From Fistulifera solaris (lineage: Eukaryota): a stretch of DNA of 64,000 nt. The translations under genes were made by a program, and so were the position numbers. Under the pieces are notes generated by a model. It was not told the DNA's origin and ran no database searches. It saw nothing but the letters and a program-made list of their open reading frames with translations. The stretch covers positions 62,001 through 126,000 of the forward strand of contig AP026128.1 in the NCBI GenBank assembly GCA_030295235.1, given 5' to 3'. Below are positions 19,563 to 49,990 of this stretch, piece after piece. Every line of letters starts with the position of its first letter. Position 1 is the stretch's first letter.

Positions 19563-19663
19563 CTTGATGAAGGTATAACAGAAATATTTTACACAAATAA
19601 TAAGGCCGCAACAATAAATGCGAGCGCCTTCGTCATCATTGCGTCGACAAAAGATCCGCGCAC

Positions 19664-20173
19664 TGTTGAAATTTCTACCGCGGTCTGTAACTGCTCTCGG
19701 CTATCGGGGACTCCACACACCCCAGACAAAAGACTATTGAAACAACGAACTTTTGCTCCAAACACTCGTTTACAGAATTATGACGATTTCCTACGATTAC
19801 TTTCGCTTTCCTCTTTTCACTGGTCTCCGATCTGATCTTGATCTGATCATGATCCGATCTTGCCAAGTCCATTTCTCCAATAACAACTTTAGGATAAAAT
19901 AGCCCTTTCTGCCAATCCACCAGATTCTCCATTATTGCATGTTCCTTAGCAACTAGCAACAGTCATCGTCCATAATTGCATACTGGATTCTTCCGTGATC
20001 CCAAATCCCCAAACATATAGTTCGAAACACTTCCGAGACTCCTTTCACGAGTAGAATGCTTTCCCAATAAACTAGGCGGTCATTTCGAACCATTCCGACA
20101 TCCGATGACGTGTCAACTCATGACTGAATAAATCTTTCAGTCCGACACTCAACCTCGACCTCGCTCTTTGACA
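19664..20173 (-). repeat. 3' LTR of element A (510 bp, TGTCAAAG...TTTCAACA on the minus strand)
   Basis: Direct repeat of 24531-25038; TG...CA termini; preceded on the minus strand by the PPT GACAGGGAGGA (20174-20184). Confidence 0.95.
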
Positions 20174-23100
20174 TCCTCCCTGTCGGCTGCTAAGATTAAC
20201 TGCGTCATGAGTCCTTCTCTAACAACAGGCACCAAAAGATCATGGATTTTCTCTGTCACATTCTTGGTTTCCAGATCTGCAATATTCCTTTCCGATCGAA
20301 TAAACTTCACAACCAGCCTGGCTTCTTCCTTCTCCGTTGCAGCCATCATCTCCCTTATAAAATGCATTCGAATATCAATGTGTTTCGTCCTATTCCCCAC
20401 AACTTGGTTTTCCATCAAGAAGATTGCGCCCGTGTTATCTTCAAACAAGGTAGCCGGTCGAATCTTCACCTTCGGAAACAATTCTTCGAATAACATCTGC
20501 AAAAACTTGATGTCCGTCGCACACGTAGATGCCGCATAATATTCCGCCTCCGTACTTGACAGTGTCACCGCCGGTTGCAACTTGCTTGAAAAGCCACACA
20601 AACAACCTCCAATGGTAACAAAGTAGCCAGTAACACTTTTCCGCGTCTCCTTGTTCGTAGCAAAGTTTGAATCCACCCATGCGTAAACCTTCAAATTAAC
20701 AGGCTCGCGCAACTTCAAATGAACGTCCGTACTCTCGAGATAGCCGACCAATCTCTTCATCGCTCTCCAATGTTCTTCACCTGGCGAATCCATAAACATT
20801 GCAAGCTCCCTAACTGCATTTCCACATTCCGGAGCTACTTTCCGCACCAGCCACATGAGACGTCCGAGAAACTTCCGATACTGATCCTTATTAACTGGAT
20901 CGCCTTCGTTCTTCACAAGCGATTCCCCTGGATAGCCCGGTGTCTTCTCAGCTTTCAACGGTCCAATCAGCTCCTTCCAATCCTTTACTATCTCGTCTTT
21001 GTACTCATCCATTCGCACTTCGTAGAACTCTCCTGCTTCATCCGATTTTCTCTCGTACCAAACTCCCAAGTGTTTCTGAATCGGGCCCATCTCGGTAATG
21101 TTGAAGCGCTTCTTGATCTCTCTCTTGAACCAATTGATTTCTTCTTGGGGACCGGCAAGGATACAATCATCGACATACACCACAATGATTAATACTGTCT
21201 CGCCGTTCACCACTTTAAACCAGACACACGGATCCGCAGCACTCTGAATAAGCCCCAGCTTCCTCAATTGGGCACAGTAGAGCATGAAGTACTCTCGTGG
21301 ACTCTGGACCAAACCGTACATCGCCCTCTCCAATAGGATGATGTAGTCAATTAACTCTTCATGCGTGATGTACCCAAACTCATATAGCCCAAAGGGCCAT
21401 TCAAGATACACCTCCTCTCTCAACTTCGCTTCTAGAAACGCAGCCTCAACGTCAATAACTTCAGTGACCCACATCTTCTTCCACATGTAAAGTACCACTG
21501 CCAAAACCATTCGAACCGACATGTCCGATGCAACAGGTGAATGCGAAAGAGTGAAGTCCACACCAGGGATTTGAACAAACCCCCGCGCACAAGTCCGAGC
21601 TTTGAAACGAATTCCCGTTGCCTCTTTCTTCTTTTTGAAAATCCACTTCGGCGTAACAGGCTTCCGTCCTCTCTCCTTCATCTGCTTTCTAGGAACCATC
21701 TTCCAAGCATCTCTTTTAATGAAATTTTCAATCTCCTTCTTCATTGCCTCTTTCCACTTGTCTGCATCCGGACCAACCAAGGCTTCCTTGTAAGTTTTCG
21801 GCGCACCAGGATCCGACGCCAACTCCGTATTCAAAACGTAGTGAAAATAACCTTCCGACACATCGATTGTATTGATCTCTCCTTTGGCGTTCATTGTTGG
21901 ATTATATGAAGTGTCCAGCCTTGCCATTTCTCTATTCAGTCTTTTCATCGTCGATTGCGTCTCTTTCCGTTGATTCGGTGCTGGAGTATTGTCCGCCGTA
22001 GCCTCGGGTACCAGAGCTTCCGTAGGACCTTCCACAGCCACTTCGACAACTTCCTCTGCCGCTTTCTCTTCCACAACTTTCCTCCCTGCTCCAGCATCGA
22101 CATCTTCGAGCATCACCGGTTTGATTGCGACTTCCTCCCCAATTTGGTCATCCTTTAAGTCGACTTCCATTCCAGCTGCAAACATCCTTAACTCTGATGC
22201 AACTGAAGCACTCGATCCATGCCAGTCTGCCCAAGTGACGTCACGTGAGAGAATGACAATATTTTCATCCGGCTTGTAAACACGATACGTATCGCCCGCA
22301 TGCGAATCCGCGTACCCAACCATCACGCATTTCACTGACTTCTTCTCCAACTTGGGCTGTTTGTTTCGTAAAGTCACATATCCGATCCGCCCCCACTGAA
22401 CCAAGTGTTTCAGTATCTTAGGATGCTCGCCGTACCACGCATAATCAGGGCTCGATTCCACATTCCGATTCGGGACAGCGTTATCCAACTTCGTTGCCGT
22501 GTGAACAGCCTCGGGCCATAACTTTCCTTGATGCTCATCCGACAACTTCGCCGCCAACATCATCGCAAGGGCCTTATCGCGAATTGTCGTGAACTTCCTC
22601 TCAACAACACCGTTCATCTGCGGAGTATGCGGGGCAGTAAACTCCATAGTTATGCCCCTCGCCTCACAGATCTCCTTGAATGTTCCGTTCTCGCCTGCAT
22701 TATCACACCGAATGTACTTTACGATTACGTTCGGATCTCCTTTCAAGCGATCAAGAAATAGCGTCATGACTTTGCCAATCATCGACTTCTTTGTAACGAA
22801 GTAACTCCAAGCTTTGCGCGTGTAATCATCCACCAATAAGATCCAGTAGCAACTCTGTCCCAACGATTTCTTGTAGGGCCCACTCGTGTCCACGTAGAAT
22901 CGTTCTCCTTTCGCCGTTGCTTTGATAGCCGTCGACTTGCACACCGCCTTTGCTTTCGCCTTCGCATACGCGCACGCCTCGCATGTCTCCTTGGTTCCAG
23001 TTAACTCGATTCCCAACTGTTTCATGAGACTCTTCAAAGGAATGTCGCTGGCGTGTCCGTACATATCGTGCGCAGCATTTATGTCCATCTTCACTTTGGT

Positions 23101-24481
23101 CTCCACCGCATGGACATCTGACTTAACAACGCTAGCCTTCAAGTAGTATAACCCATAGTGTGACTGAGGTACCGTCAACACACTCTTTCCGGAGGGGTCA
23201 GTGATCTTCATCGCACAACTGGTTATCTCAATCTTGCACCCTTGCTTCACTAAAGCCCCAGTACTGATGATATTCTTTGCGAACGTTGGCGCCACCTTGA
23301 CTTCACTCAACTTCATAGTACCACCCACAGTAGCGAGCATGAGTGTACCCTTCTTGTGTACTTGGACTTCCTTTCCGTCGCCGACGACCAAATACTCCTT
23401 CGTCGAAATAACATCGCGCAAAATCGTTTCATCCAAAACAACATGGCACGTCGCTCCACTGTCGAGAAGAAACCTTTCCTTGTCGTTGACTCTCGACGTT
23501 TCGACCGCACCAACTTGATGAACGACGCCACAGAACTCTTCGCCGCCTTTGCCGACCTCATAGCACATGCCAACGAACATGTTCAGGTCCTTGTTCTCCG
23601 ACTTCGGATCCTTGCCGTTCGACTTGTCCGGACACTCGCGAGAGAAATGGCCTTCCTTGCCACAGTTGAAGCAGACTTTCTTCTTGTCGCTCTTGCACTC
23701 CGCTGCCTTGTGTTCCTTGTTTGCCGCAGTTGCGGCACTTTCCTTGAACTTCTTCTTAAAACCACCCTTGCCCTTTTCGACGTTTAATGCTAAATTTTTA
23801 TTTTCTTTTTTGTCTTTTTTCTTTTTCTTCGTTTTCTTCATCGTTCTTGGGCTTGAAACAGCGCTTCCACTTGTTCCGGATCTCCTTCTCGAGGTCTTCA
23901 ATCGAGGTCTCGTTGATCTTTCCGCTCAACTTCGTGATCACATCCGAATACTCGTCAGGAAGGTTGGCCAAGTAGTGGGCTTTCAAAACGAAACTTGGCT
24001 TCACATACTGCGATCCGATTGTCTTCAAACGGTTCTGTAACCGATCGCACTCCAGGAAGAACTTGTCAGGGTCATCTTCCTTCGACGCCAACTTGCACCG
24101 TCCGAACTCCGCCAACACCTCCGCCAAATCTTCCTCGCTGTTCCGGGCGTACTTAGCATCCAAAAGCTTGAATGCGTCTCTCGCATCACCATCCGCTCTC
24201 TTGACAAGACCCAAAGGAACGCCTTCGCACGCAATCACCAACAAATCGATGATCTCGAGATTGCTTCGATACAACTCCTTGTCCTTCGCCGTCGCCGTCG
24301 CTCCCATCGCAACTTCCTTCGTGGGGATCTCGGCCTTCAGGTCATCGAACACACTTGTCCAACCTCTCTTCGTGATCAGCGACATCGTCTTGAACTTCCA
24401 GTCATCGTACGACTTCTCAGCGACCTTGTCGTCCAACGGGTAGAAGGTCAAAGCCCTCATCTTCTCTCCCTCGTCGGTCAT
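20149..24481 (-). CDS. Copia Gag-Pol polyprotein, interrupted by one extra A in the A6 run at 23815-23820
   Basis: Gag (ORF 23798-24481); zinc knuckle CFNCGKEGHFSREC; protease LLDSGAT; integrase HHCC and VDTSGP/RCDNAGE/NGVVER; RT YVDD; RNase H VDSNFA/TEAEY/EDN. The stop codon lies inside the 3' LTR. Confidence 0.95.
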
Positions 24482-24513
24482 CTTGTCTTGTCTCGTAAAC
24501 TTTTTTTTCTCAA

Positions 24514-24530
24514 CGCCACGCTTATAAGCG
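24514..24530 (-). other. Primer-binding-site position of element A: 12-nt palindrome CGCTTATAAGCG followed by TGGCG
   Basis: Immediately follows the 5' LTR ...TTCAACA. CA-CGCTTATAAGCG-TG is a perfect 16-bp palindrome. Confidence 0.8.
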
Positions 24531-25038
24531 TGTTGAAATTTCTACCGCGGTCTGTAACTGCTCTCGGCTATCGGGGACTCCACACACCCCAGACAAAAGA
24601 CTATTGAAACAACGAACTTTTGCTCCAAACACTCGTTTACAGAATTATGACGATTTCCTACGATTACTTTCGCTTTCCTCTTTTCACTGGTCTCCGATCT
24701 GATCTTGATCTGATCATGATCCGATCTTGCCAAGTCCATTTCTCCAATAACAACTTTAGGATAAAATAGCCCTTTCTGCCAATCCACCAGATTCTCCATT
24801 ATTGCATGTTCCTTAGCAACTAGCAACAGTCATCGTCCATAATTGCATACTGGATTCTTCCGTGATCCCAAATCCCCAAACATATAGTTCGAAACACTTC
24901 CGAGACTCCTTTCACGAGTAGAATGCTTTCCCAATAAACTAGGCGGTCATTTCGAACCATTCCGACATCCGATGACGTGTCAACTCATGACTGAATAAAT
25001 CTTTCAGTCCGACACTCAACCTCGACCTCGCTCTTTGA
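24531..25038 (-). repeat. 5' LTR of element A (508 bp; lacks the terminal TG)
   Basis: Matches 19664-20171. The identity ends at ...CTCTTTGA (25038), two bases short of the LTR terminus. Confidence 0.95.
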
Positions 25039-25184
25039 ATACGGAGTTGGCGTCGGATCCTGGTGCGCCGAAAACTTACAAGGAAGCCTTGGTTGGTCCG
25101 GATGCAGACAAGTGGAAAGAGGCAATGAAGAAGGAGATTGAAAATTTCATTAAAAGAGATGCTTGGAAGATGGTTCCTAGAAAG
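25034..25184 (+). repeat. 151-bp inverted duplicate of the pol segment 21685-21835
   Basis: Reverse complement of 21685-21835, identical by eye (encodes NTELASDPGAPKTYKEAL...WKMVPRK). TTTGA microhomology with the LTR end at 25034-25038. Confidence 0.95.
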
Positions 25185-25444
25185 GGTTCGAACCCTGGCG
25201 GAGTGAGTTTGTTGCCGACTCCTGTGAAGCCGGGAGGATAAAAGAACAGGGCTTGAAGCGGTCTCAAGCGAGGAGGCTGAAGGGCAAAACAGTACGATCA
25301 TGATAGTATAAGGCCAGGGAGGATGTCAGATTGAGGGTCTGGACGTCAATCAGAGTGGCTTATATATCATGGATCGGGGTAGAAATACGACGTGATTGGG
25401 TTGGCTCTGTGGTTCGATTCCACAGTACGTTAGTATTTTCATCA
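25184..25444 (+). mobile_element. Non-autonomous mini LTR element (TRIM-like, element B) lacking its 5' LTR: palindromic PBS, about 115-bp structured spacer, PPT and 121-bp LTR (25324-25444)
   Basis: GGGTTCGAACCC-TGGCG at 25184-25200; CAGGGAGGA|TGTCA at 25315-25328, identical to the PPT/LTR junction of element A; ends TTTCATCA (element A: TTTCAACA); followed by the target-site duplication. Confidence 0.75.
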
Positions 25445-25450
25445 GCGCAC
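25445..25450. repeat. Target-site duplication GCGCAC (partner copy at 19658-19663)
   Basis: GCGCAC|TGTTGAAA on the left and TTTCATCA|GCGCAC on the right. The reconstructed empty site is a (CGCGCAC)3 tract. Confidence 0.75.
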
Positions 25451-25744
25451 CGCGCACCGCGCACCGCAAAAAAAATCCTGCTATGTGCTATGTGAGGGCG
25501 AAACATCAACTGTCGTACCAGTACTCAAAATTATTCGCCTTTCGCCTTTATCGTCTTCGCGCCGTCTCCCTCCGTCGCCACTTTACAACCCATTCCCGTT
25601 CGTGACTGACGACACCTTTATTGCTTGTTGATCCTCTATTGTATACTACGGAGTAGCATTTTTCTTCGTCTTCTATCTCCTAGTTGTTACTGTATTACTT
25701 TGTCGGGGACAGAGAATTGGCTTAAAGAGAAGGAAGTTCCCAGG

Positions 25745-27655
25745 ATGTTGAAGCTGCGCGTGCTCTTCTTCTACTATTGCATACGAACGGCACGTCCATT
25801 TTCGGGTGTATCGCTGACACGTCGTGTCTCCCAATTGACACCACCCGATGTATCTTTTCCAAAATCAGAAGAACGAATTGAAAGAGCACCGCGGATCATT
25901 ATAGTTGGTGGAGGTGTCGGTGGATTGGCCATTGCTTGTAGGATCGCGTTTCGGCATCCCCAAAGTCAAGTGATTTTGTTGGAAAAGAATGCGGAAGTCG
26001 GAGGACGGATGGGATCCTTTGATGTGCAAGTAGATGGTGTTGGAATCTTTCGACACGAGCGTGGCCCGAGTCTTCTTCTGTTACCGCATGTTTATCGTGC
26101 GCTATTTGATGACCTTCAACAAGGGTCTGCCGAAGACTATGGAATCACAATGAAACGATGTAGCCCCGCCTATCAAGTTGTTTTTGATGATGGTGACAGA
26201 ATCAATGTGGGATTTGATCGATCGGATCCTAAATCGATAGAATTAGAAAAGGAATCGCGGAAAACGATGGATACATTCGAATCAAATGGCTCCACAAAAT
26301 GGGACGAATACATGGATATATGCGAAGCATACCTGGACTGTGGATTGCCCAATTTTATCGAAGAACGCCTTGACCTGCCGAGTTTTCCCAAATTTCTGTC
26401 AGCTGCGCTAGGCGACTTTGGTAAAGCGTGGCCTTTGAAGCCACATTCGGATGTGTTGGATGATATTTTTTCTTCCGAAAAGATGAAAGCACTGGCTTCG
26501 TTTCAGGATCTGTATGTGGGACTGGAGCCTTTTGCTAACCAAAATTTGCCTTTCGGTGGTGTTCTGGATACAACAGCCCCCGCCGTTTTCGGATTACTTT
26601 CCGCTATCGAATTGCATCCTACCAACAACAAATGCGGAGTATTTGCTCCAATCGGAGGATTTCGTGCCGTAACGAATGGGATGGAGTCTCTCGCGCGAGA
26701 CTTGGGGGTAGTGGTAAAAACCGGAACAACCGTTACAAAAGTAATTTCGGAAGGCGTTTATTGTTGTGAAACGTCCAACACTGATAAGAAATGGTTTGAA
26801 GCGGCTGATTATACTGTGGTAAACGCCGATCTTCCGTATGCGAAAAAGACTATATTAGACGACAATCAACAAGTTGACGAAGGACCTACGTATGATTGGG
26901 ACGATTCTTATCGATTTAGTTGCGGAGTTATTGCGTTCCACTGGTCTTTTACAAAAACATTGGACGATTTGAATACTCATAACGTTTTCATGTCAGTTAA
27001 AAGCAGAAACGCAGCAGAGAAAAGCTGGGAGGTGATTCGAGGAAACAACAAAGAGAAGCTTTTTAAGTGGGATATGAATTTGCCATTCAACTTCTACGTT
27101 CACCGCGCCAGTCTAGCAGACCCCTCGGCGGCTCCAAAGGTAAGTATTCGGCTTATTACGTGTAATTGCTATGACTCTATGAGCGACTAAAGGTATATTT
27201 TGAAGGGCGCGGACTCGATTCTTGTCCTCGTTCCTTGCCCTGCGCTTGATCGTTTGACTGACGTGAAGTCGATGAACAGAGAAGAAGTTGTTCAAGCTTA
27301 CAATAACCAATTTGATGACAAGTTGATCACATGCGTACGGCAGTCTGTGTTGCAAAGACTGGCTGTCATTGACTCCCTGAAAGATATTCAACAACATCTG
27401 ATACATGAGGTTGTCGATACACCTGCTTCCTACGCTGATAAATACAATGTCGGAGCTGGAACTCCTTTCGCTTTAAGTCATGGATTTGGTCAATTGAGCA
27501 TTACGCGACCGGGTCCGCTTTCTTCCGGTATTCCGAATGTATGCTTTTGCGGTGCCAGCAGCCGTCCTGGCAATGGGGTGCCCCTAGTTCTCATAGGCGC
27601 CAAGCTTGTTGCCGAGAAGGTCGCCAACACAATTTCATTGACGGCCAATGATTAG
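25745..27655 (+). CDS. CrtI-family phytoene desaturase-like FAD oxidoreductase; intron 27140-27205
   Basis: IIIVGGGVGGL Rossmann motif, LEKNAEVGGR, RHERGPSLLL, C-terminal FCGASSRPGNGVPLVLIGAKLVAE. Confidence 0.85.
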
Positions 27656-29019: not shown

Positions 29020-31677
29020 TTAGTCGTCTAGCAAGTCATCAAGATCGTCGTCGCCCCAATCATCATTAAAGTCATTAGCGTCTGCCGTCAACTGCGTTGC
29101 ACTCGGTTGCGTCTTCGCTGTCGTCAGTGGACGAGCGGTAGGCTTTCCAAACGAAGGCTTGGCGGCGAGATCAAATTCGGCGAAGAAATCGTCAGCTTTC
29201 GGTTTTGTGGCAATGGGCAGTTTAGTAGCGGTAGGCTTCGGAGCGCCAAGCTTTGTTATCACTGGTGCTGACATCGGAGACGGCGCAAGTGCTCCCTGGG
29301 GTTGATCCAAGTGATTATTGCGATGGTGCAGAGCGGTGTTGTGCGCCGCCCCGCCTTGCCAGGACGGCCCTCCATGACTTGCACCATGTAAATTCAGGCC
29401 GGGTCGAGAAGCCACCGGCTGAGGGGATGAAATGTCCTGTTTGTCTTTTGAACTACTTCTTCTTATTAGTTGTTTTTTCTGTGACGGAGGAGTCTTCGAT
29501 CTAGGCTTTCCAAAGCTTGTCCCGGCCACACGATGGGTATTCTCGGGTTCTTGTGCAAGCTCAACATCGCCTTCACCTTCGTCCCAATCCCAGTCATCGG
29601 CATCGCTTTCTGCCTCATTAGTTGACCTGAAAGTAGTAACGCAATAAAATATCTGAGTACTTGGATTATGAGGACACAGCATGCTTATGTCACCCACTTT
29701 TAACTTACACCCCTTCGTATACAGCAGATTTGTGAAAACGTCTATTCGAAAGATCCCCGATGTGTGAAACCCCCACCCTGGCTTTTCTCTGGTAGTAGCA
29801 ATACGCAGCCATGATGAAGAACAAGACAAAGGAAACGGTCGGCATGAAACCGAAACCGTCATTCTCATCGGTTTCAACGCACATATCATCAGGCCTTTCT
29901 TCTTCGTTTACCTCAAAGCACTTTCCCGTATGCCAAATACATGCTTTGCCAGCTTCGTTCGGATTTCCTAACTTGCAGCTATCACAGGTTGTAAAAGACT
30001 CACAAAGATCTGGTTTGGCGCACATTGCCTTGGGCTTCTCGTCCGCTTCTTTTTTCAAACAAGTAGAGCCATTCCACACACAGGCTTTGTCGTCCTCTCC
30101 GGCGTCCATATCATTACACTCATCGCAATCTTCAGCATCCTTACAAGGATCAGGATTGTCACACATGGCCTGGGGCTTCTCAGACGCGTCTTTTCTCAGA
30201 CAACTGAAGCCATCCCATACACAAGCTTTGCCGGCCTCGTCTGCACTCGTGTCATCGCACTCATCGCAATCATCAGCATCTTTGCAAGGGTCGGGCTTGT
30301 CACACATAGCTTTAGGCTTTTCATCAGCGTCTTTTTTCGAACAACTAGAGCCATCCCACACACACGCTTTGTCAGGCTCCTCCACACTCATGTCATCGCA
30401 TTCAGCGCAATCATCTGCTTCCTTGCAAGGATCAGGCTTGTCGCACATGGCTTTCGGTTTCTCATCCGCGTCTTTTTTCGAACAAGTAGAACCGTCCCAA
30501 ACACAACCTTTGTCAGGCTCGTCGACATGCGTATCATTACACTCGTCACAATCATCAGCGTCCTTGCAAGGATCAGGCATGTCACACATAGCACTGGGTT
30601 TCTCATCCGCGTCTTTCATTTCACATTTGCTTCCATCCCACACACAAGCTTTGTCATCCTGGTCCGCACTCGTATCATTGCACTCATCACAATCATCAGC
30701 TTTGAAGCAGGGATCCGGTTTTTCACACATTGCTTTGGGTTTCTCATCAGCGTCTTTTTTCGAACAACTAGCAACGTCCCAAACACAAGCTTTATCAGGC
30801 TCATCGACATTCGTGTCATTGCACTCGTCACAGTCAGTAGCATCCTGACAAGGATCCGGTTTGTCACACATTGCTTTTGGTTTCTCGGCGGCGTCGCTCT
30901 TCTTGCATTCCGCACCGGACCACACACACGCTTTGCCATCTTCCAGGGCATCCGTGTCATTACAGGCGTCACAATCATCCGCCTTAGTACAAGGATCCTT
31001 TTGTTACACATATCATCCGGCTTTTTGGAAGCTCTTCCCTTTGTACACGCACTGCCATCCCATAAGCACGCCTTTCCCTCTTCTACTTGGGCATCATTGC
31101 ACGTATCGCAGTCTTTTGCTTTCGGACACGGATCCTCTTTGACATTACACATTTCGATTGTCATTTTACTGTCTCCTTGAACACACGTATTATTTTTCCA
31201 TTGACAAAACGGATGATCCCCATCGGACGTTGCGTCCACGCATTCTCCACAAGTCGTGGCATCCGCGCACTGGACCGCTTTGCCCTCCTCGGTGGGGACG
31301 GCCACCGGCTTATCTTTTGGACCTGCCTCGACAGTCGGTTCGATATCCTTGACCGGAGCCGCCACCGGAGCTGCGGTCGACACGGGTGTATCGCATACTG
31401 GTTCTATGTCAGACTTCTCCGCCATCGCGCAAGCCCCGTCGGACCACCGACATGCTTTTCCTTGTATTTGCGGGTCCGTGGCTTGACATTCCTCACACGA
31501 GACCAAAGTGTGACAAGGATCGTCTTGCTGCTGATTGCCCGTGACATTCGCCTCGGGTTCTTTCAAATGCCGTATTTCAGATTTTTTGGTGAAAGATCCG
31601 TCGGATGACACCAGCACAACGAGAATGGAAATAAGAATCAGCGATAACGGACGTCGCCGTGTGATTCGATGTGTCAT
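29020..31677 (-). CDS. Type-I membrane protein with about 11 Cys-rich PSI-like repeats (47-aa unit); frameshift near 31000, intron about 29627-29708
   Basis: Hydrophobic N-terminus; tandem DPC...C..C...KACVWDG..C...MC units with a 141-bp period; TM segment VSFVLFFIMAAYCYY; acidic/Pro-rich cytosolic tail ending DDWGDDDLDDLLDD. Confidence 0.85.
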
Positions 31678-41011: not shown

Positions 41012-41778
41012 TTCGAGTTTGCAAATATAGCTGCTGCTTGATTCAAGGTCGACCGATGACGGGCAAAAGGAATGCGAATTGTTACAGTTGGTATATGATT
41101 GACAACAAAGATGCCGTTCGACTGTTGTCGTTGTCGCTGTGTTTGTGCGCTTGTTCGCGGCGGCGGCGGCGCTCGCTCGCGCGCTGTTTGGCCGCAACGA
41201 CAACAACCATTATTGCGGAACGCGAGGCATGCATCATGCATCATAACCTGAGTCGCCTCTAGCATTAAGTGTAGGAGAACGGCACTGACGTCAGAATACA
41301 TGCATGATCGACAAAAAGATTTCAATCCTGACTGTGGCGTCAGCATATCGCTTCCGCAAAAAAGGAGCGATGAACGATGAAACGATGAAACGATGAAACA
41401 TCTATTTCCCTTATTATGGCAACCACTGGTGGTGCTTAACCCCCAAAGAATGCGAATATAGAAGGATAAACGCGTGAATCGCTTTCCCTGTGCACGAATA
41501 TGAAAAACGGCGGCGGTAATAACAGCGCCCAGCAGCAGCGAACTGATCAATTAACCTTGTTACGGTGTTGTTGTGGGCCCACAAAAGATGAAAACAAATA
41601 TGACTCGTTCGAGCTACAATCTACTTTGATTTGTTTATCTTTTCTGTCTTCCTTCTCTGCATAACTGAAACCAAGAATCGATATCATCGGCTATCACCAT
41701 CACTTCTTGCCTCGACACCATGCATCCTCGATTCGACCGCATTATCAATTCAAAGGAGAGCCTTACCAAGCCGGTACC

Positions 41779-42373
41779 TTAAACCGTGCCTTTTCCCTTG
41801 CCCTTTCCTTTGCCTTTGCCTTTTCCTCCTTTGCCCTTTCCTTTACCGGAGTCGGTTCCTCCTTTTCCTTTGCCAGAGTCCTCGCCTCCTTTGCCCTTTC
41901 CTTTGCCAGAGTCGGTTCCTCCCTTGCCCTTTCCTTTTCCGGAATCGGTTCCTCCTTTGCCCTTGCCTTTACCAGAGTCTTCGCCTCCCTTGCCTTTTCC
42001 TTTACCAGAGTCTTCGCCTCCTTTGCCTTTTCCTTTACCAGAATCGCTGCCTCCTTTGCCCTTTCCTTTGCCAGAGTCGGTTCCTCCCTTGCCTTTTCCT
42101 TTACCAGAGTCACTGCCTCCCTTGCCTTTTCCTTTGCCAGAGTCTCCTTTGCCCTTTCCTTTACCAGAATCACTGCCTCCTTTGCCCTTGCCTTTGCCAT
42201 GGTCAAGGCGACGCAAGTTCTTAAAGAAGAATTAGCGAACCGATTGGAGAACGAGCCTTACGAAAATGCATCCGACCCCTTTTGGCACTCACCATTTGTT
42301 CGCCGTCGTTTTCTGCTGCGATGGCCAATGCGGCCATGACGCCGACAATCAAAAAGTTGAAAAGACCTTTCAT
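41779..42373 (-). CDS. Secreted Gly/Lys-rich repeat protein (173 aa): signal peptide, RRL, (GKGKGKGG[S/T/E]DS)x11; exons 42373-42293 and 42219-41779
   Basis: Exon 1 MKGLFNFLIVGVMAALAIAAENDGEQM, GTGAGT...TAAG intron, exon 2 NLRRLDHGKGKGK...; 33-bp tandem repeat. Confidence 0.85.
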
Positions 42374-43047: not shown

Positions 43048-45905
43048 TTATACGTAGATGACGTACATTTGAATATTGCGCCAATCGACATAAAGGGACA
43101 TGGAAAGGACGTTAAAATTCTGCCACTCAGTACAAATTTCTACGTAGAGCCTACGGCGAGACAGAATTTTAACGTCGTTTCCTGATGTTGCTTTAAAATG
43201 GTCCAATTCCCACGAGTCGATATCTTCAATAGGTAGGTCATCACTTGTCACGGCGTTGGTTTCGACACGATAGTGCAAGGGTGCTTTCTCGGACAGTGGT
43301 ACAACACTCGCATCGTCCTCGTCCGACAAGCCGTCGCTGTCCTCCGTACAAACCGCTGCTTCAACATGGACCACGCATCCGGGTGAAATTTCTTCTTGAA
43401 TCAGCATGCGACTCAACGTTGTGACAACCGTCGATTCGATGTAGCGTTCAACGGGACGAGCTCCGTACTTCGGATCGTACGACTCGGCCAATATCATCCG
43501 AGCTCCATCCGGTTCCAAGACAAGAATTATACCCTTGGAAAGAAGACGCTTGTGGACATTTTGTATGGCTTTGTGTACAATTTTTTCGAGCTGATTTGTT
43601 CCAAGGGCATTGAAAATCACCATGCATGAAAGACGATTTAAAAGCTCCGGTGTAAAGGTTTTCTGTGCTTCCAGCATAACTTGAGCACGAGCTTCCTTCT
43701 TCTTTGCATGACTTTTAAGCATATGCTGCGAACCGACGTTCGATGTCAGATTAACAATTGTATTGCGGAAATCAACCTTGCGACCTTTGGAGTCTGTCAG
43801 GTGCCCTTCGTCCATGATTTGAAGCAAGACGGTCAACACACGAGGATGAGCCTTTCCAATCTCGTCGAATAAAACGACGGTGTACGGTTTGCGACGAACG
43901 GATTCGGTCAGTTGTCCGCCCTCGTCGTGTCCGATATACCCAGGGGGTGAACCTATTAAGCGGGCCACCGAATGCGACTCAGAATACTCGCTCATGTCGA
44001 TGCGAACCAAGTGCCGTTCATAGCCGTCATACAATTCGCTAAACAGAGCCTTGGAAAGTTCCGTTTTGCCAGCACCTGTAGGCCCGAGGAACATAAAAGA
44101 ACCGGAAGGTTGTGACTCGCGAGCCAAGCCAGCTTTAGACCGAAGGATGCATTCGGTGACCGCATAAATGGCCTCGTCTTGTCCCACGACCCGTTCACGT
44201 AGCCGTTCGCTCAAATTCAAGAGCCTTGACTTTTCTGTCCGAGACATTTTGGCACAGGTATACCAGTCCAACGTGAAATGACTTCTGTGATATCTTGCTC
44301 CGTAACATCTTTATCATAATTGCAGCTTTCCGCTTTTCGCGCCTTATTTTCTGTTTCGATCTTGTTCAACTGTTTCTGCGTGGCGGGAATGGCTCCATAC
44401 TTTAAATCAGCCGCTTCATTGTAATCTCCGTGTCTTTCGGCTGATGCTGCCTTGAATTCCAACGCCGCAAGCTTTTCCTTGACAGTCTTTAATTCTTCTG
44501 CTCGTCGGCGATCAGCCTTCCATTTCTCGTTCAGAGGTTCCAATTCTTTCATCAACTTTACCATTTGATCTTCTATATGGGAAAGCTTTCTCGCGGGTGG
44601 AGTTTTCTTCTGACGCTCTAGTGCCGTCGCTTCGATTTTCAACTGTAGAATTTGCCGTTCCAGTTGGTCAATTCGTTCTGGTCGACTATCAAGAATTGTC
44701 CTTTTCCTTGCACCGGCTTCATCGATCAAATCAATACTCTTGTCTGGATTAAAGCGATAGTTGATGTAGCGATCCGACAGTTTGGCAGCTGCTATAACGG
44801 CACTGTCGGTGATATGAATAGCATGATGCGTCTCGTACTTATCCACTAAACCACGAAGCATAGAAACGGCGTCCCGAACTGACGGTTCGTCTACTATTAC
44901 CTTTTGGAAGCGTCTCTCAAATGCAGAATCTTTCTCGATGTAATTTCGGTACTCCTGCAGTGTCGTGGCACCAATCATTTTCAATTCACCCTTTGCCAAC
45001 ATGGGCTTGAGCAGATTGGCCGCGTCCATGGAACCGCTGCACCTACCCGCACCGAGTATGAGATGAACTTCATCCACAAATAGAACAATGCGGCCTTCTG
45101 CTTCTTTGACCTCTTCCAATACGAGTCGTAGACGTTCTTCAAAGTCCCCCCGATAAGTGGTACCTGCCACGAGCGCTCCCATATCCAGAGTACGCAAGGC
45201 AATATTCTTGATGGTTTCGGGCACATCACCGTCGACAAGACGGCGAGCAAATCCGTCTACCACCGATGTTTTGCCTGTACCTGGTTCGCCCACCAAGACA
45301 GGGTTGCTCTTCGTGCGTCGTGCAAGAATTTGAATCAATCGTCGAATTTCTTCGTCGCGTCCAATTACGGGATCCAACTTCCCCTCTTCGGCTAGTTTTC
45401 GCATGTCAATACCATACTTTTCGAGCGCTGCAAGCTTGTCTTTAACTACTGGAAAGACGGTTGTGGATGCCTTGCAAATCTGGATCAGCGTTTCTTTCAC
45501 CGTTTTCTCCTTGAGGACTCCCTTCAACGCTACTTTAGCTTCACGATCTTCAAATAATGCAATTAGCAGGAGGTTCGGTGCCAGGAGTACATCATCATTG
45601 GCCTTGCATAGTTTCGCGGCATACTCCAGCCACAAAGAAAAATTGCTTGACAAAGAAGCTTCGCCAGGGATTTCTGGATAAGCGGGCTTCTTCAATAAAG
45701 CTTTCTGAATACTTTGTCGCGCCAAATAAACATCACACGATGCTCGAAGACAAACTTTGGCTCCAATGGAGTCTTCTCTCTGAAACAGTACGTGTGCTAG
45801 ATGAATCGGATCGACCTTTGAATGGCCATGATCACAAGCGGTCACACGTGCTTCGTCGATCGCTTTCTGCGACGCGTCAGAGATGTTATTGTTGTTCTCT
45901 GCCAT
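43048..45905 (-). CDS. clpB: Divergent ClpB/Hsp101 AAA+ disaggregase paralog; frameshift near 44250
   Basis: [63 protein letters not shown]. Confidence 0.88.
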
Positions 45906-48532: not shown

Positions 48533-49990
48533 TTATCGAAAAATTTTCAGTATTCTCCACGCATCGATATCTTTGGCAATTGTATCACAACTTGTCACCG
48601 CATCAAATTCAACACGATACTGCAAGGGTGACTTCTCGGCCAATTGTAAACGACTCGTGTCGTCATCGCTTGAGGACTGCTCCGTGGCTTCCACATGGAC
48701 TACGCACCCGGAAGTGATTTCTTCTTGAAGCAGCATACGGCTCAATGTCGTGACGACGGTACTGGTAGCCTCGATGTATCGCTCCACCGGACGAGCTCCG
48801 TATTTCGGATCAAAAGACTTGGCCAGGATCACGCGAGCTCCACTGGTTTCCAACACAAGACGAATGCCCTTGGACAGGAGAAGTTGGCGAACATCCTGAA
48901 TGGACTTGTGAACAATCTTTTCCAGTTCATTAGGCCCAAGAGAATTGAAGATAACCACGGATGAAAGGCGATTCAAAAACTCTGGGGCGAAAATTCTCTG
49001 AACCTCATTCATAAGTTGAAAATTCGTCTCTTTTCCATCGCCTTCGGTCATATGCTGTGCTCCAATGTTCGATGTCAGAATAACTATGTATTTCGAAAAT
49101 CAACGGTAAAGGCCCTTTAGAGTCCGTCAAACGCCCTTCATCCATGATTTGAAGTAACACTCTCAGCACATGAGGATGTGCCTTTTCAATCTCATCGAAG
49201 AGAACAACCGCGTATGGCTGGCGGAGTACGGCGTCGATCAGTTGTTCACCCTCATCATACCCAATATATCCCGGCGGTGACCTGATCAAGCGGGCTACTG
49301 AATGCTGTACAATATACTCACTCATGTCGACGCGAACCAGGTGCCGTTCATCGCCATTATAATGAGTTCACCTAACAATGCTTTCGCCAACTCCGTTTTA
49401 CCAACCCCTGTAGGGCCGAGAAACAAGAATTTTCTTGTCGGCTGCGAGTCGCGTGCCAAGCCAGCTCTTGATCGAAGAATACATTCGGTGGCCGCATTAA
49501 TGGCCTCGTCTTGACCCACAACCCGCTCCCCTCAAACGCTGGTTCGTCAACAATCCCGCTTTTTCGCTTTGTGTTAGTTTGGTAACAGGGATGCCGGTCC
49601 GACGGGAAATGACTTCTGCAACATCCTGATCCATTACATATCCTTTGGTCGACACCGTTTTCGATCTTTACCAGCAATTCGAACGTTGTCAAACTTTGCT
49701 TTGCTGATATAATGCATTCATCTTCCATGATTGAATCGGCCTTCAACTTTTCTTTTGAGGCTTCTAGCTCGGTTCTCGAACTGATTAAATTCGCTAGCTT
49801 TGCTATATATGGCGATTTCTTCTGACGCTGGATTGCTACCTCTTCGGTATCTGACTTTTAGATTGTCGTTCCAGTTGAGCCATCTGAGCTGGTCGGCTGT
49901 CCAGAATGGATCTTTATGCGTCGCAGCTTCATCAATCAGATCGATACTCTTCTCGAAATTAAATTTGTGATCGATGTAGCGGTCCGATTC
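48533..49990 (-). pseudogene. ClpB/Hsp101 pseudogene (N-domain and most of NBD1 missing; multiple frameshifts)
   Basis: Fragments [64 protein letters not shown] and [12 protein letters not shown] lie in different frames. Confidence 0.88.

Follow-up and report, generated by a model that had tools for sequence, protein, structure and literature searches.

The window analysed here is a 64,000-nt stretch of the Fistulifera solaris genome (contig AP026128.1 of assembly GCA_030295235.1, positions 62,001 to 126,000 of the forward strand), and all coordinates below are positions within it. A 5.8-kb insert (19664-25444) separates a minus-strand mitofilin-like gene from an amine-oxidase-like gene on the plus strand; without it, this divergent intergenic region would measure ~400 bp. 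The insert consists of a Ty1/copia element on the minus strand (element A), a short inverted copy of part of its own pol gene, and a miniature long terminal repeat (LTR) element lacking one LTR (element B), which faces the other way. We argue that 19664-25444 is probably one insertion of a chimeric double-stranded cDNA, made from replication intermediates of these two retroelements. The features of the locus, in order along the window, are as follows.

19658-19663: left GCGCAC, which may be one copy of a target-site duplication; the left flank ends in 8 nt that keep the phase of the CGCGCAC repeat
19664-25038, minus strand: element A, whole, 5375 nt
19664-20173, minus strand: 3' LTR of A, 510 bp, in sense TGTCAAAG...TTTCAACA; its U5 end is the left end of the insert
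20149-23901, minus strand: pol frame of A, 1250 codons
20174-20184, minus strand: polypurine tract of A, in sense GACAGGGAGGA, immediately 5' (in sense) of the 3' LTR
21685-21835, minus strand: stretch within A pol that is the source of the 151-nt inverted copy
23798-24481, minus strand: gag frame of A, 227 codons, in a frame different from pol
24519-24530, minus strand: 12-nt palindrome CGCTTATAAGCG adjoining the 5' LTR of A, followed in sense by TGGCGTTGAG
24531-25038, minus strand: 5' LTR of A, 508 bp, equal to the 3' LTR without its first two bases (TG in sense)
25034-25184, plus strand: 151-nt pol copy, A-sense on the plus strand and so inverted relative to A; shares TTTGA with the LTR and AG with B
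25184-25323, plus strand: internal region of B, from a palindrome remnant (25184-25195) to the polypurine tract CCAGGGAGGA (25314-25323); the 10-12-nt TGG-initial stretch of native B is absent
25324-25444, plus strand: LTR of B, 121 bp, TGTCAG...TTTTCATCA, with a T-arm-like hairpin at 25408-25424; its U5 end is the right end of the insert
25445-25450: right GCGCAC
25445-25467: (CGCGCAC)n microsatellite, which makes the duplication length ambiguous

Element A, the inverted pol copy and the flanks

The two LTRs of A, 510 and 508 nt long, are identical at all 508 shared positions (100%). On the plus strand the right LTR ends ...CTCTTTGA, while the left goes on with CA and then the complement of the polypurine tract, which shows that the 5' LTR of A lacks its first two bases. 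LTR ends of the TG...CA type (the 5' LTR without its TG), a polypurine tract before the 3' LTR and the order of pol domains (zinc knuckle, protease barrel, integrase, RVT_2) place A with Ty1/copia. By residue, the pol frame matches zf-CCHC at 56-71, Pol_BBD at 124-202, gag_pre-integrs at 230-294, rve at 317-407, SH3_retrovirus at 477-537 and RVT_2 at 724-955 (E 1.2e-37); the rve and gag_pre-integrs matches fall under the Pfam cut-offs. With identical LTRs and copia domain order, A is a young and largely whole element.

A protein comparison of A pol gave 1077 matches from 8000 scored candidates. Among the matches listed, the closest named ones were diatom proteins, with identity of 72% to a Fistulifera solaris protein and 45% to Fragilaria crotonensis proteins, as for a host that is probably a pennate diatom; one further protein, P0003, was 95-97% identical to A pol. 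P0003 is a single 1437-residue gag-pol frame, and A in the window has gag and pol in two frames (23700-23900). Three single-base frame changes separate A from P0003, some of them within base runs. In the first of two zinc knuckles 11 residues differ (ESAATAANKEH against GKCRNCGKQGH), the pattern that two opposite single-base frame changes would be expected to leave. Either real damage or assembly errors in base runs could account for the frame changes.

Where a primer site would be expected in A, the palindrome CGCTTATAAGCG comes right after the 5' LTR, and a TGG follows only 12 nt further on. Over 24499-24530 there is no TGG within 5 nt of the 5' LTR, but instead the perfect 12-nt palindrome and then TGGCG. 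B likewise has a palindrome followed by TGGCG (25184-25200). Might the palindromes of A and B serve in RNA dimerisation?

Next to the 5' LTR of A, 25034-25184 matches 21685-21835 over 151 nt with 100% reverse-complement identity; being exact, the copy is as old as A. Five nucleotides, TTTGA (25034-25038), are common to the end of the A LTR and the pol copy. On the other side, canonical pol matches up to 25184 and native B, described below, starts from 25183, an overlap of 2 nt (AG). A sequence-only reading of the window had described a 5' LTR without its first two bases, joined through TTTGA to a 151-bp copy of 21685-21835, and all of its coordinates hold here.

GCGCAC stands directly outside the outer ends TGTTGAAA and TTTCATCA. 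It was claimed earlier to flank 19664-25444 and not A alone, and so it does, at 19658-19663 and 25445-25450; A has no target-site duplication of its own, in that the bases flanking 19664 and 25038 differ. The flanks of the insert match over 6 nt and together restore perfect repeat phase. A 6-nt match at fixed ends would be expected by chance in about 1 of 4096 cases. Because the flanks lie in a 7-nt repeat, what the match proves is the position of the insert within that repeat, and neither a 6-bp duplication nor a route of entry. Most described copia elements leave a 5-bp target-site duplication, and the sequence-only reading had set 6 bp here against that norm. Of this claim, the presence of GCGCAC on both sides stands; its length is ambiguous in the 7-nt microsatellite, and 5 bp is no established norm for diatom copia elements, the duplication of Blackbeard being given as TTCC in one figure legend (PMC2806351).

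Element B and its native order

A 14-mer, CAGGGAGGATGTCA, gives the key to B. It occurs twice in the 64 kb, once at the junction of polypurine tract and U3 in A (20169-20182, minus strand) and once in B (25315-25328, plus strand); the expectation is 0.01, and none of 100 shuffles gave two or more. The common 14-mer splits B into an internal part that ends in a polypurine tract and an LTR of 121 bp. B had been taken to extend to 25444, which is correct, but only 25324-25444 is LTR and the remainder is internal sequence. At the other end of the LTR, the last 16 nt of B match the U5 end of A at 12 of 16 positions in the window (13 of 16 using the native base), and in native B the terminal bases are alike at eight of eight. 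Past the ends no similarity between the A and B LTRs was found, and the window holds no second copy of B (25185-25444).

Copies of B outside the window were seen in public environmental sequencing runs. There were seven candidate runs, of which the best holds 0.43 of the sampled words and none reaches half. Contigs of four of them (X1-X4; 79, 4, 8 and 8 contigs) were placed on 24400-26200, and the results given here rest on the 28 pieces listed out of 105. In these copies ACATGGTAACGTGC comes after 25441 and leads into 25183 (X1: one contig at depth 116.9 and a variant at 16.6; X4: one contig at depth 8.07). The native order of B is thus LTR end ...TTTTCAACA, a 10-12-nt TGG-initial stretch resembling a primer site, a 16-nt palindrome, internal region, polypurine tract, LTR. 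It follows that B in the window is the whole unit without the primer-site-like stretch. It also follows from this order that the palindrome, which had been proposed as part of the primer site, instead adjoins that site on its 3' side. In the window the palindrome, GGGTTCGAACCC at 25184-25195, is cut short relative to its native 16 nt. By itself it is not rare, with at least one match (at most one mismatch) in 12 of 100 shuffles.

A 304-nt contig of X4 has the same 30 nt at both ends and closes on itself, which sets the B unit at 273-274 nt. Such a closed contig would fit an LTR-internal-LTR element in a word graph, and a tandem array or circle would look alike. In X1 the summed depth is 117-134 over 25193-25314, then 1376 and 691 over 25315-25436; the step, about tenfold, comes at the bin starting at 25315 and fits the expectation for LTR versus internal region. 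A first reading of the joint, as going back 259, had suggested a satellite or small circle; once the 14-mer and the depth step were seen, it gave way to LTR-internal-LTR. After the equivalent of 25444, contigs diverge from B into unrelated flanks (four in X1, one in X2), so 25444 is a true LTR terminus. This bears out the earlier statement that the insert has the U5 end of A on its left and a U5-like end of B on its right, in opposed orientation. Position 25442 is T in the window and A in native B copies.

In X1, a wetland run, the summed depth was ~288 over the U5-side LTR of A (24522-24643) and 691-1376 over the B LTR (25315-25436), versus 9-20 over single-copy flank. Many variants were present, and the A and B families, or their relatives, are abundant in that sample. 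Exact-pattern and protein scans of viral_contigs, metagenome_contigs and genome_contigs returned no relatives of A or B.

What kind of element is B? In the window it has one LTR and a non-coding internal part with a polypurine tract, and a full, flanked, two-LTR copy was not seen there. Its ends and its polypurine tract are common to an autonomous partner, as in TRIMs (terminal-repeat retrotransposons of miniature size). These sequence features make a TRIM-like non-autonomous element, with the polypurine tract, U3 start and U5 end of A, the best description of B. ARAGORN found no transfer RNA (tRNA) in B, profiles showed no tRNA family up to E 10 and no Rfam family, and the only tRNA-like signs were the T-arm-like hairpin and a weak match to the tRNA-like end of tmRNA (E 2.1). 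In the absence of any tRNA or Rfam match, B as a tRNA gene or short interspersed element was rejected. No tRNA genes for comparison with the primer site were found in the window. The RNA fold of B has z = -2.48.

The tail of the B LTR (25408-25439) resembles the 3' end of a tRNA gene, with a T-arm-like hairpin of 5 bp and 7 nt that bears GGTTCGATTCC, then GTACGTTA, then TTTT. When CCA is added to GTACGTTA, the complement matches the native TGG-initial stretch at 10 of 11 positions (compared by eye).

Origin of the composite

B as found in the window has the composition of a minus-strand cDNA after first strand transfer, with its 5' end at the boundary of U5 and primer and its 3' end where synthesis meets the primer site. 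Its inner junction lies 1-3 nt within the native palindrome, at the edge of the primer site. The sequence-only reading had placed this join exactly at the palindrome with an overlap of 1-2 nt; the overlap, AG, is indeed 2 nt, and the break falls 1-3 nt inside the 16-nt native palindrome. On the A side, the inner junction has the 5-nt overlap and misses the U3 end of A by 2 nt; at that U3 end the finished minus strand of A has its 3' terminus. The two inner junctions thus fall where replication intermediates naturally end, and at both outer ends the LTR terminus is exact. Of 273 positions, roughly 5 would put a random break no more than 2 nt from the B primer-site edge.

These breakpoints suggest the following history, of which the simplest version takes two template switches. 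Read along its minus strand, the insert would begin as B minus-strand DNA, from the U5 terminus through R, U3, polypurine tract and internal region, as far as the primer site's 3' edge. It would go on as 151 nt of A pol in minus polarity, and end as the complete A plus strand from base 3 of U3. The B minus strand would have stalled where its primer was still annealed and jumped to A pol with a 2-nt overlap. After 151 nt a second jump, across a 5-nt overlap (TCAAA in sense), would have brought it to the 3' end of the completed minus strand of A. A mirror-image order would serve as well, in which the 3' end of the A minus strand snaps back onto its own pol and then switches to the B minus strand; the two orders give the same product and cannot be told apart. 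The product would carry two similar ...CA-3' U5 ends and, these ends being alike, the element's integrase could, as the simplest final step, insert it into the first CGCGCAC unit between the two divergent genes. In vitro, two U5 donor ends are routine in integrase assays; our literature searches turned up no described natural insertion with two such ends.

Two further ideas about the joints were tried. A 13-nt purine run lies 5 nt past the copied 151 nt, and copying might have stopped there at an internal plus-strand primer (a central polypurine tract); the idea is post hoc and has little weight, purine runs being common in A (34 of at least 9 nt and seven of at least 13 nt in 5375 nt). Autointegration was rejected, since at a joint made by integrase the LTR end would be complete and microhomology absent.

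A chimeric cDNA with two jumps, with a B minus strand extended to its primer site and with two outward-facing U5 ends, is also what the sequence-only reading had proposed. Of the models considered it does best, and the common 14-mer, the LTR terminus and the native order of B have strengthened it, for one locus from an unverified assembly; joining of separate cDNAs could also yield the structure. Its statement that the locus is direct evidence of A and B sharing a particle is too strong, as we infer such sharing and do not see it.

Several observations weigh against the chimeric cDNA. A 6-bp duplication of a three-unit repeat gives the same sequence as a blunt insertion or capture in a four-unit repeat with the loss of 1 nt, which would need no integrase. 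The difference from native B at 25442 is three bases from the end and may matter to integrase. Native B structure comes from short metagenome contigs (212-308 nt), among which no flanked full copy was seen, and an array or circle would give the same closed contig. Run X3 matches the flank (242 nt, 0 differences) yet shows no B, which at a depth of only 2-6 says little. Among the listed pieces of the four runs, none spans 25038, 25184 or 25444, loose ends at 25034, 25038 and 25184 show only canonical A contexts, and no contig or allele with an empty site was seen.

Of the other explanations, joining by the host fares best, though we consider it unlikely. Microhomology-mediated or classical end joining would have linked a full A, a 151-bp A fragment and an unfinished B cDNA. 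The product would then have been integrated or, with 1 nt lost, captured at a break within the CGCGCAC repeat. End joining, too, typically leaves such overlaps (5 and 2 nt) and such a loss as that of 2 nt at the U3 end of A, capture of Ty1 cDNA at breaks is known in yeast, and the microsatellite makes a 6-bp duplication look the same as a 1-nt deletion. Yet both outer ends are exact, un-nibbled LTR termini, which break capture rarely yields. Nor is the B piece a finished two-LTR cDNA; it is precisely the minus-strand intermediate, complete but for the primer site. A free double-stranded 151-bp fragment of pol is an extra assumption besides.

An artefact of assembly, in which a chimeric read or wrong join set an inverted scrap of pol and B beside A, is highly improbable. 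It would draw support from the want of an independent run spanning the junctions among the listed pieces, and from the three frame changes relative to P0003, some in base runs, which could hint at base-run errors. An artefact would not, however, leave the exact terminus of the B LTR abutting a flank whose repeat phase carries on from that of the left flank, 5.8 kb away. Neither would it break B 1-3 nt from the primer-site edge, nor A 2 nt from its LTR end with a 5-nt overlap.

That B was already resident as an older truncated insertion, with A and an aberrant 151-nt tail landing beside it or a later rearrangement joining the two, we regard as scarcely credible: at least one environmental run has many B-type LTRs, making old copies near genes plausible, but A would be left without a duplication of its own and would have had to remove exactly the 5' LTR and primer site of B, the repeat in the left flank next to A continues after B, and identity is 100% for the 151-nt copy as for the LTRs, with no sign of differing ages.

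Relation to known elements and meaning for diatom retroelements

In grasses, complexes of LTR retrotransposons with a single duplication arise by abnormal template switching (Sabot and Schulman 2007; PMC1950507). The locus described here is like those complexes in that two elements would have been fused in reverse transcription and inserted as one unit with a single duplication. The cases described there join same-family copies in direct orientation through a common middle LTR, with 5-bp duplications and normal U3/U5 outer ends, unlike the present two different elements, which stand head-to-head with a filler of pol and two U5 ends. Where those authors look for three direct LTRs with an outer pair alike, our outer LTRs come from different elements; where they look for a single duplication around the complex, GCGCAC is on both sides, but within the 7-nt repeat.

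A second parallel comes from animals, in which LTR-mediated chimeric retrocopies form through template switches that depend on microsimilarity (Tan et al. 2016; PMC5131818). Multiple switches at short common sequences, and a chimeric cDNA that is made in the particle and then integrated, are features that the present locus would share. There, the two LTRs of a single element enclose captured host mRNA, all in one orientation, unlike here, where the partner is the minus strand of another retroelement and polarity changes along the strand. Among diatom copia-like (CoDi) elements, to which the diatom protein matches of its pol liken A, intact copies without a duplication have also been noted, and Maumus et al. 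(2009; PMC2806351) explain them by recombination within the family; the locus described here has another element as partner and non-homologous junctions. The present case is a single event, a variant of known template-switch chimeras and not a new mechanism.

B resembles TRIMs in its 121-bp LTR, its non-coding internal part of ~150 nt, its TGG-initial primer-site-like stretch and its polypurine tract. It also resembles such miniature elements in ends that match an autonomous partner and in an LTR with a T-arm-like hairpin, though no full two-LTR copy with flanks was seen. Miniature elements with small-RNA-like LTRs and tandem forms have been described as Helenus (PMC10886601) and Cassandra (PMC7215508). 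Helenus/TRIMp3 has tRNA-derived LTR sequence with box A and box B (Kojima 2024), whereas no tRNA model matches B. Among the papers listed by a literature search, none was about a diatom TRIM to judge by its title.

Other repeats were noted elsewhere in the window. At 29862-31007 there is an array of at least seven copies of a 141-nt unit (63-78% identity to a reference copy), inside long open frames on both strands, and at 41762-42223 an array with about 10 overlapping registers of a 33-nt period. Two ~1-kb stretches 5.33 kb apart (43353-44308 and 48682-49639) are 72-80% alike in several blocks; they probably represent minus-strand paralogues in tandem.

Taken jointly, the steps would amount to the following, which we offer tentatively as a whole. 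A diatom copia particle would have co-packaged the RNA of a miniature parasite; the parasite minus strand would have stalled at its annealed primer and been bridged to the copia cDNA; and the copia integrase would have inserted two U5 ends of different elements, leaving 6 bp. In this combination no miniature LTR element whose LTR tail resembles a tRNA gene would have been described in diatoms before B.

For the host, a 5.8-kb insert in a divergent promoter region may affect both the mitofilin-like and the amine-oxidase-like gene. Aberrant products of reverse transcription have mostly been studied in yeast or cell culture, and a clean genomic case shows what reaches a wild genome. If confirmed, this one would yield testable statements about the little-studied copia elements of diatoms: the identity of the small element that they mobilise, the place where minus-strand synthesis halts, and the sufficiency of two U5 ends for insertion.

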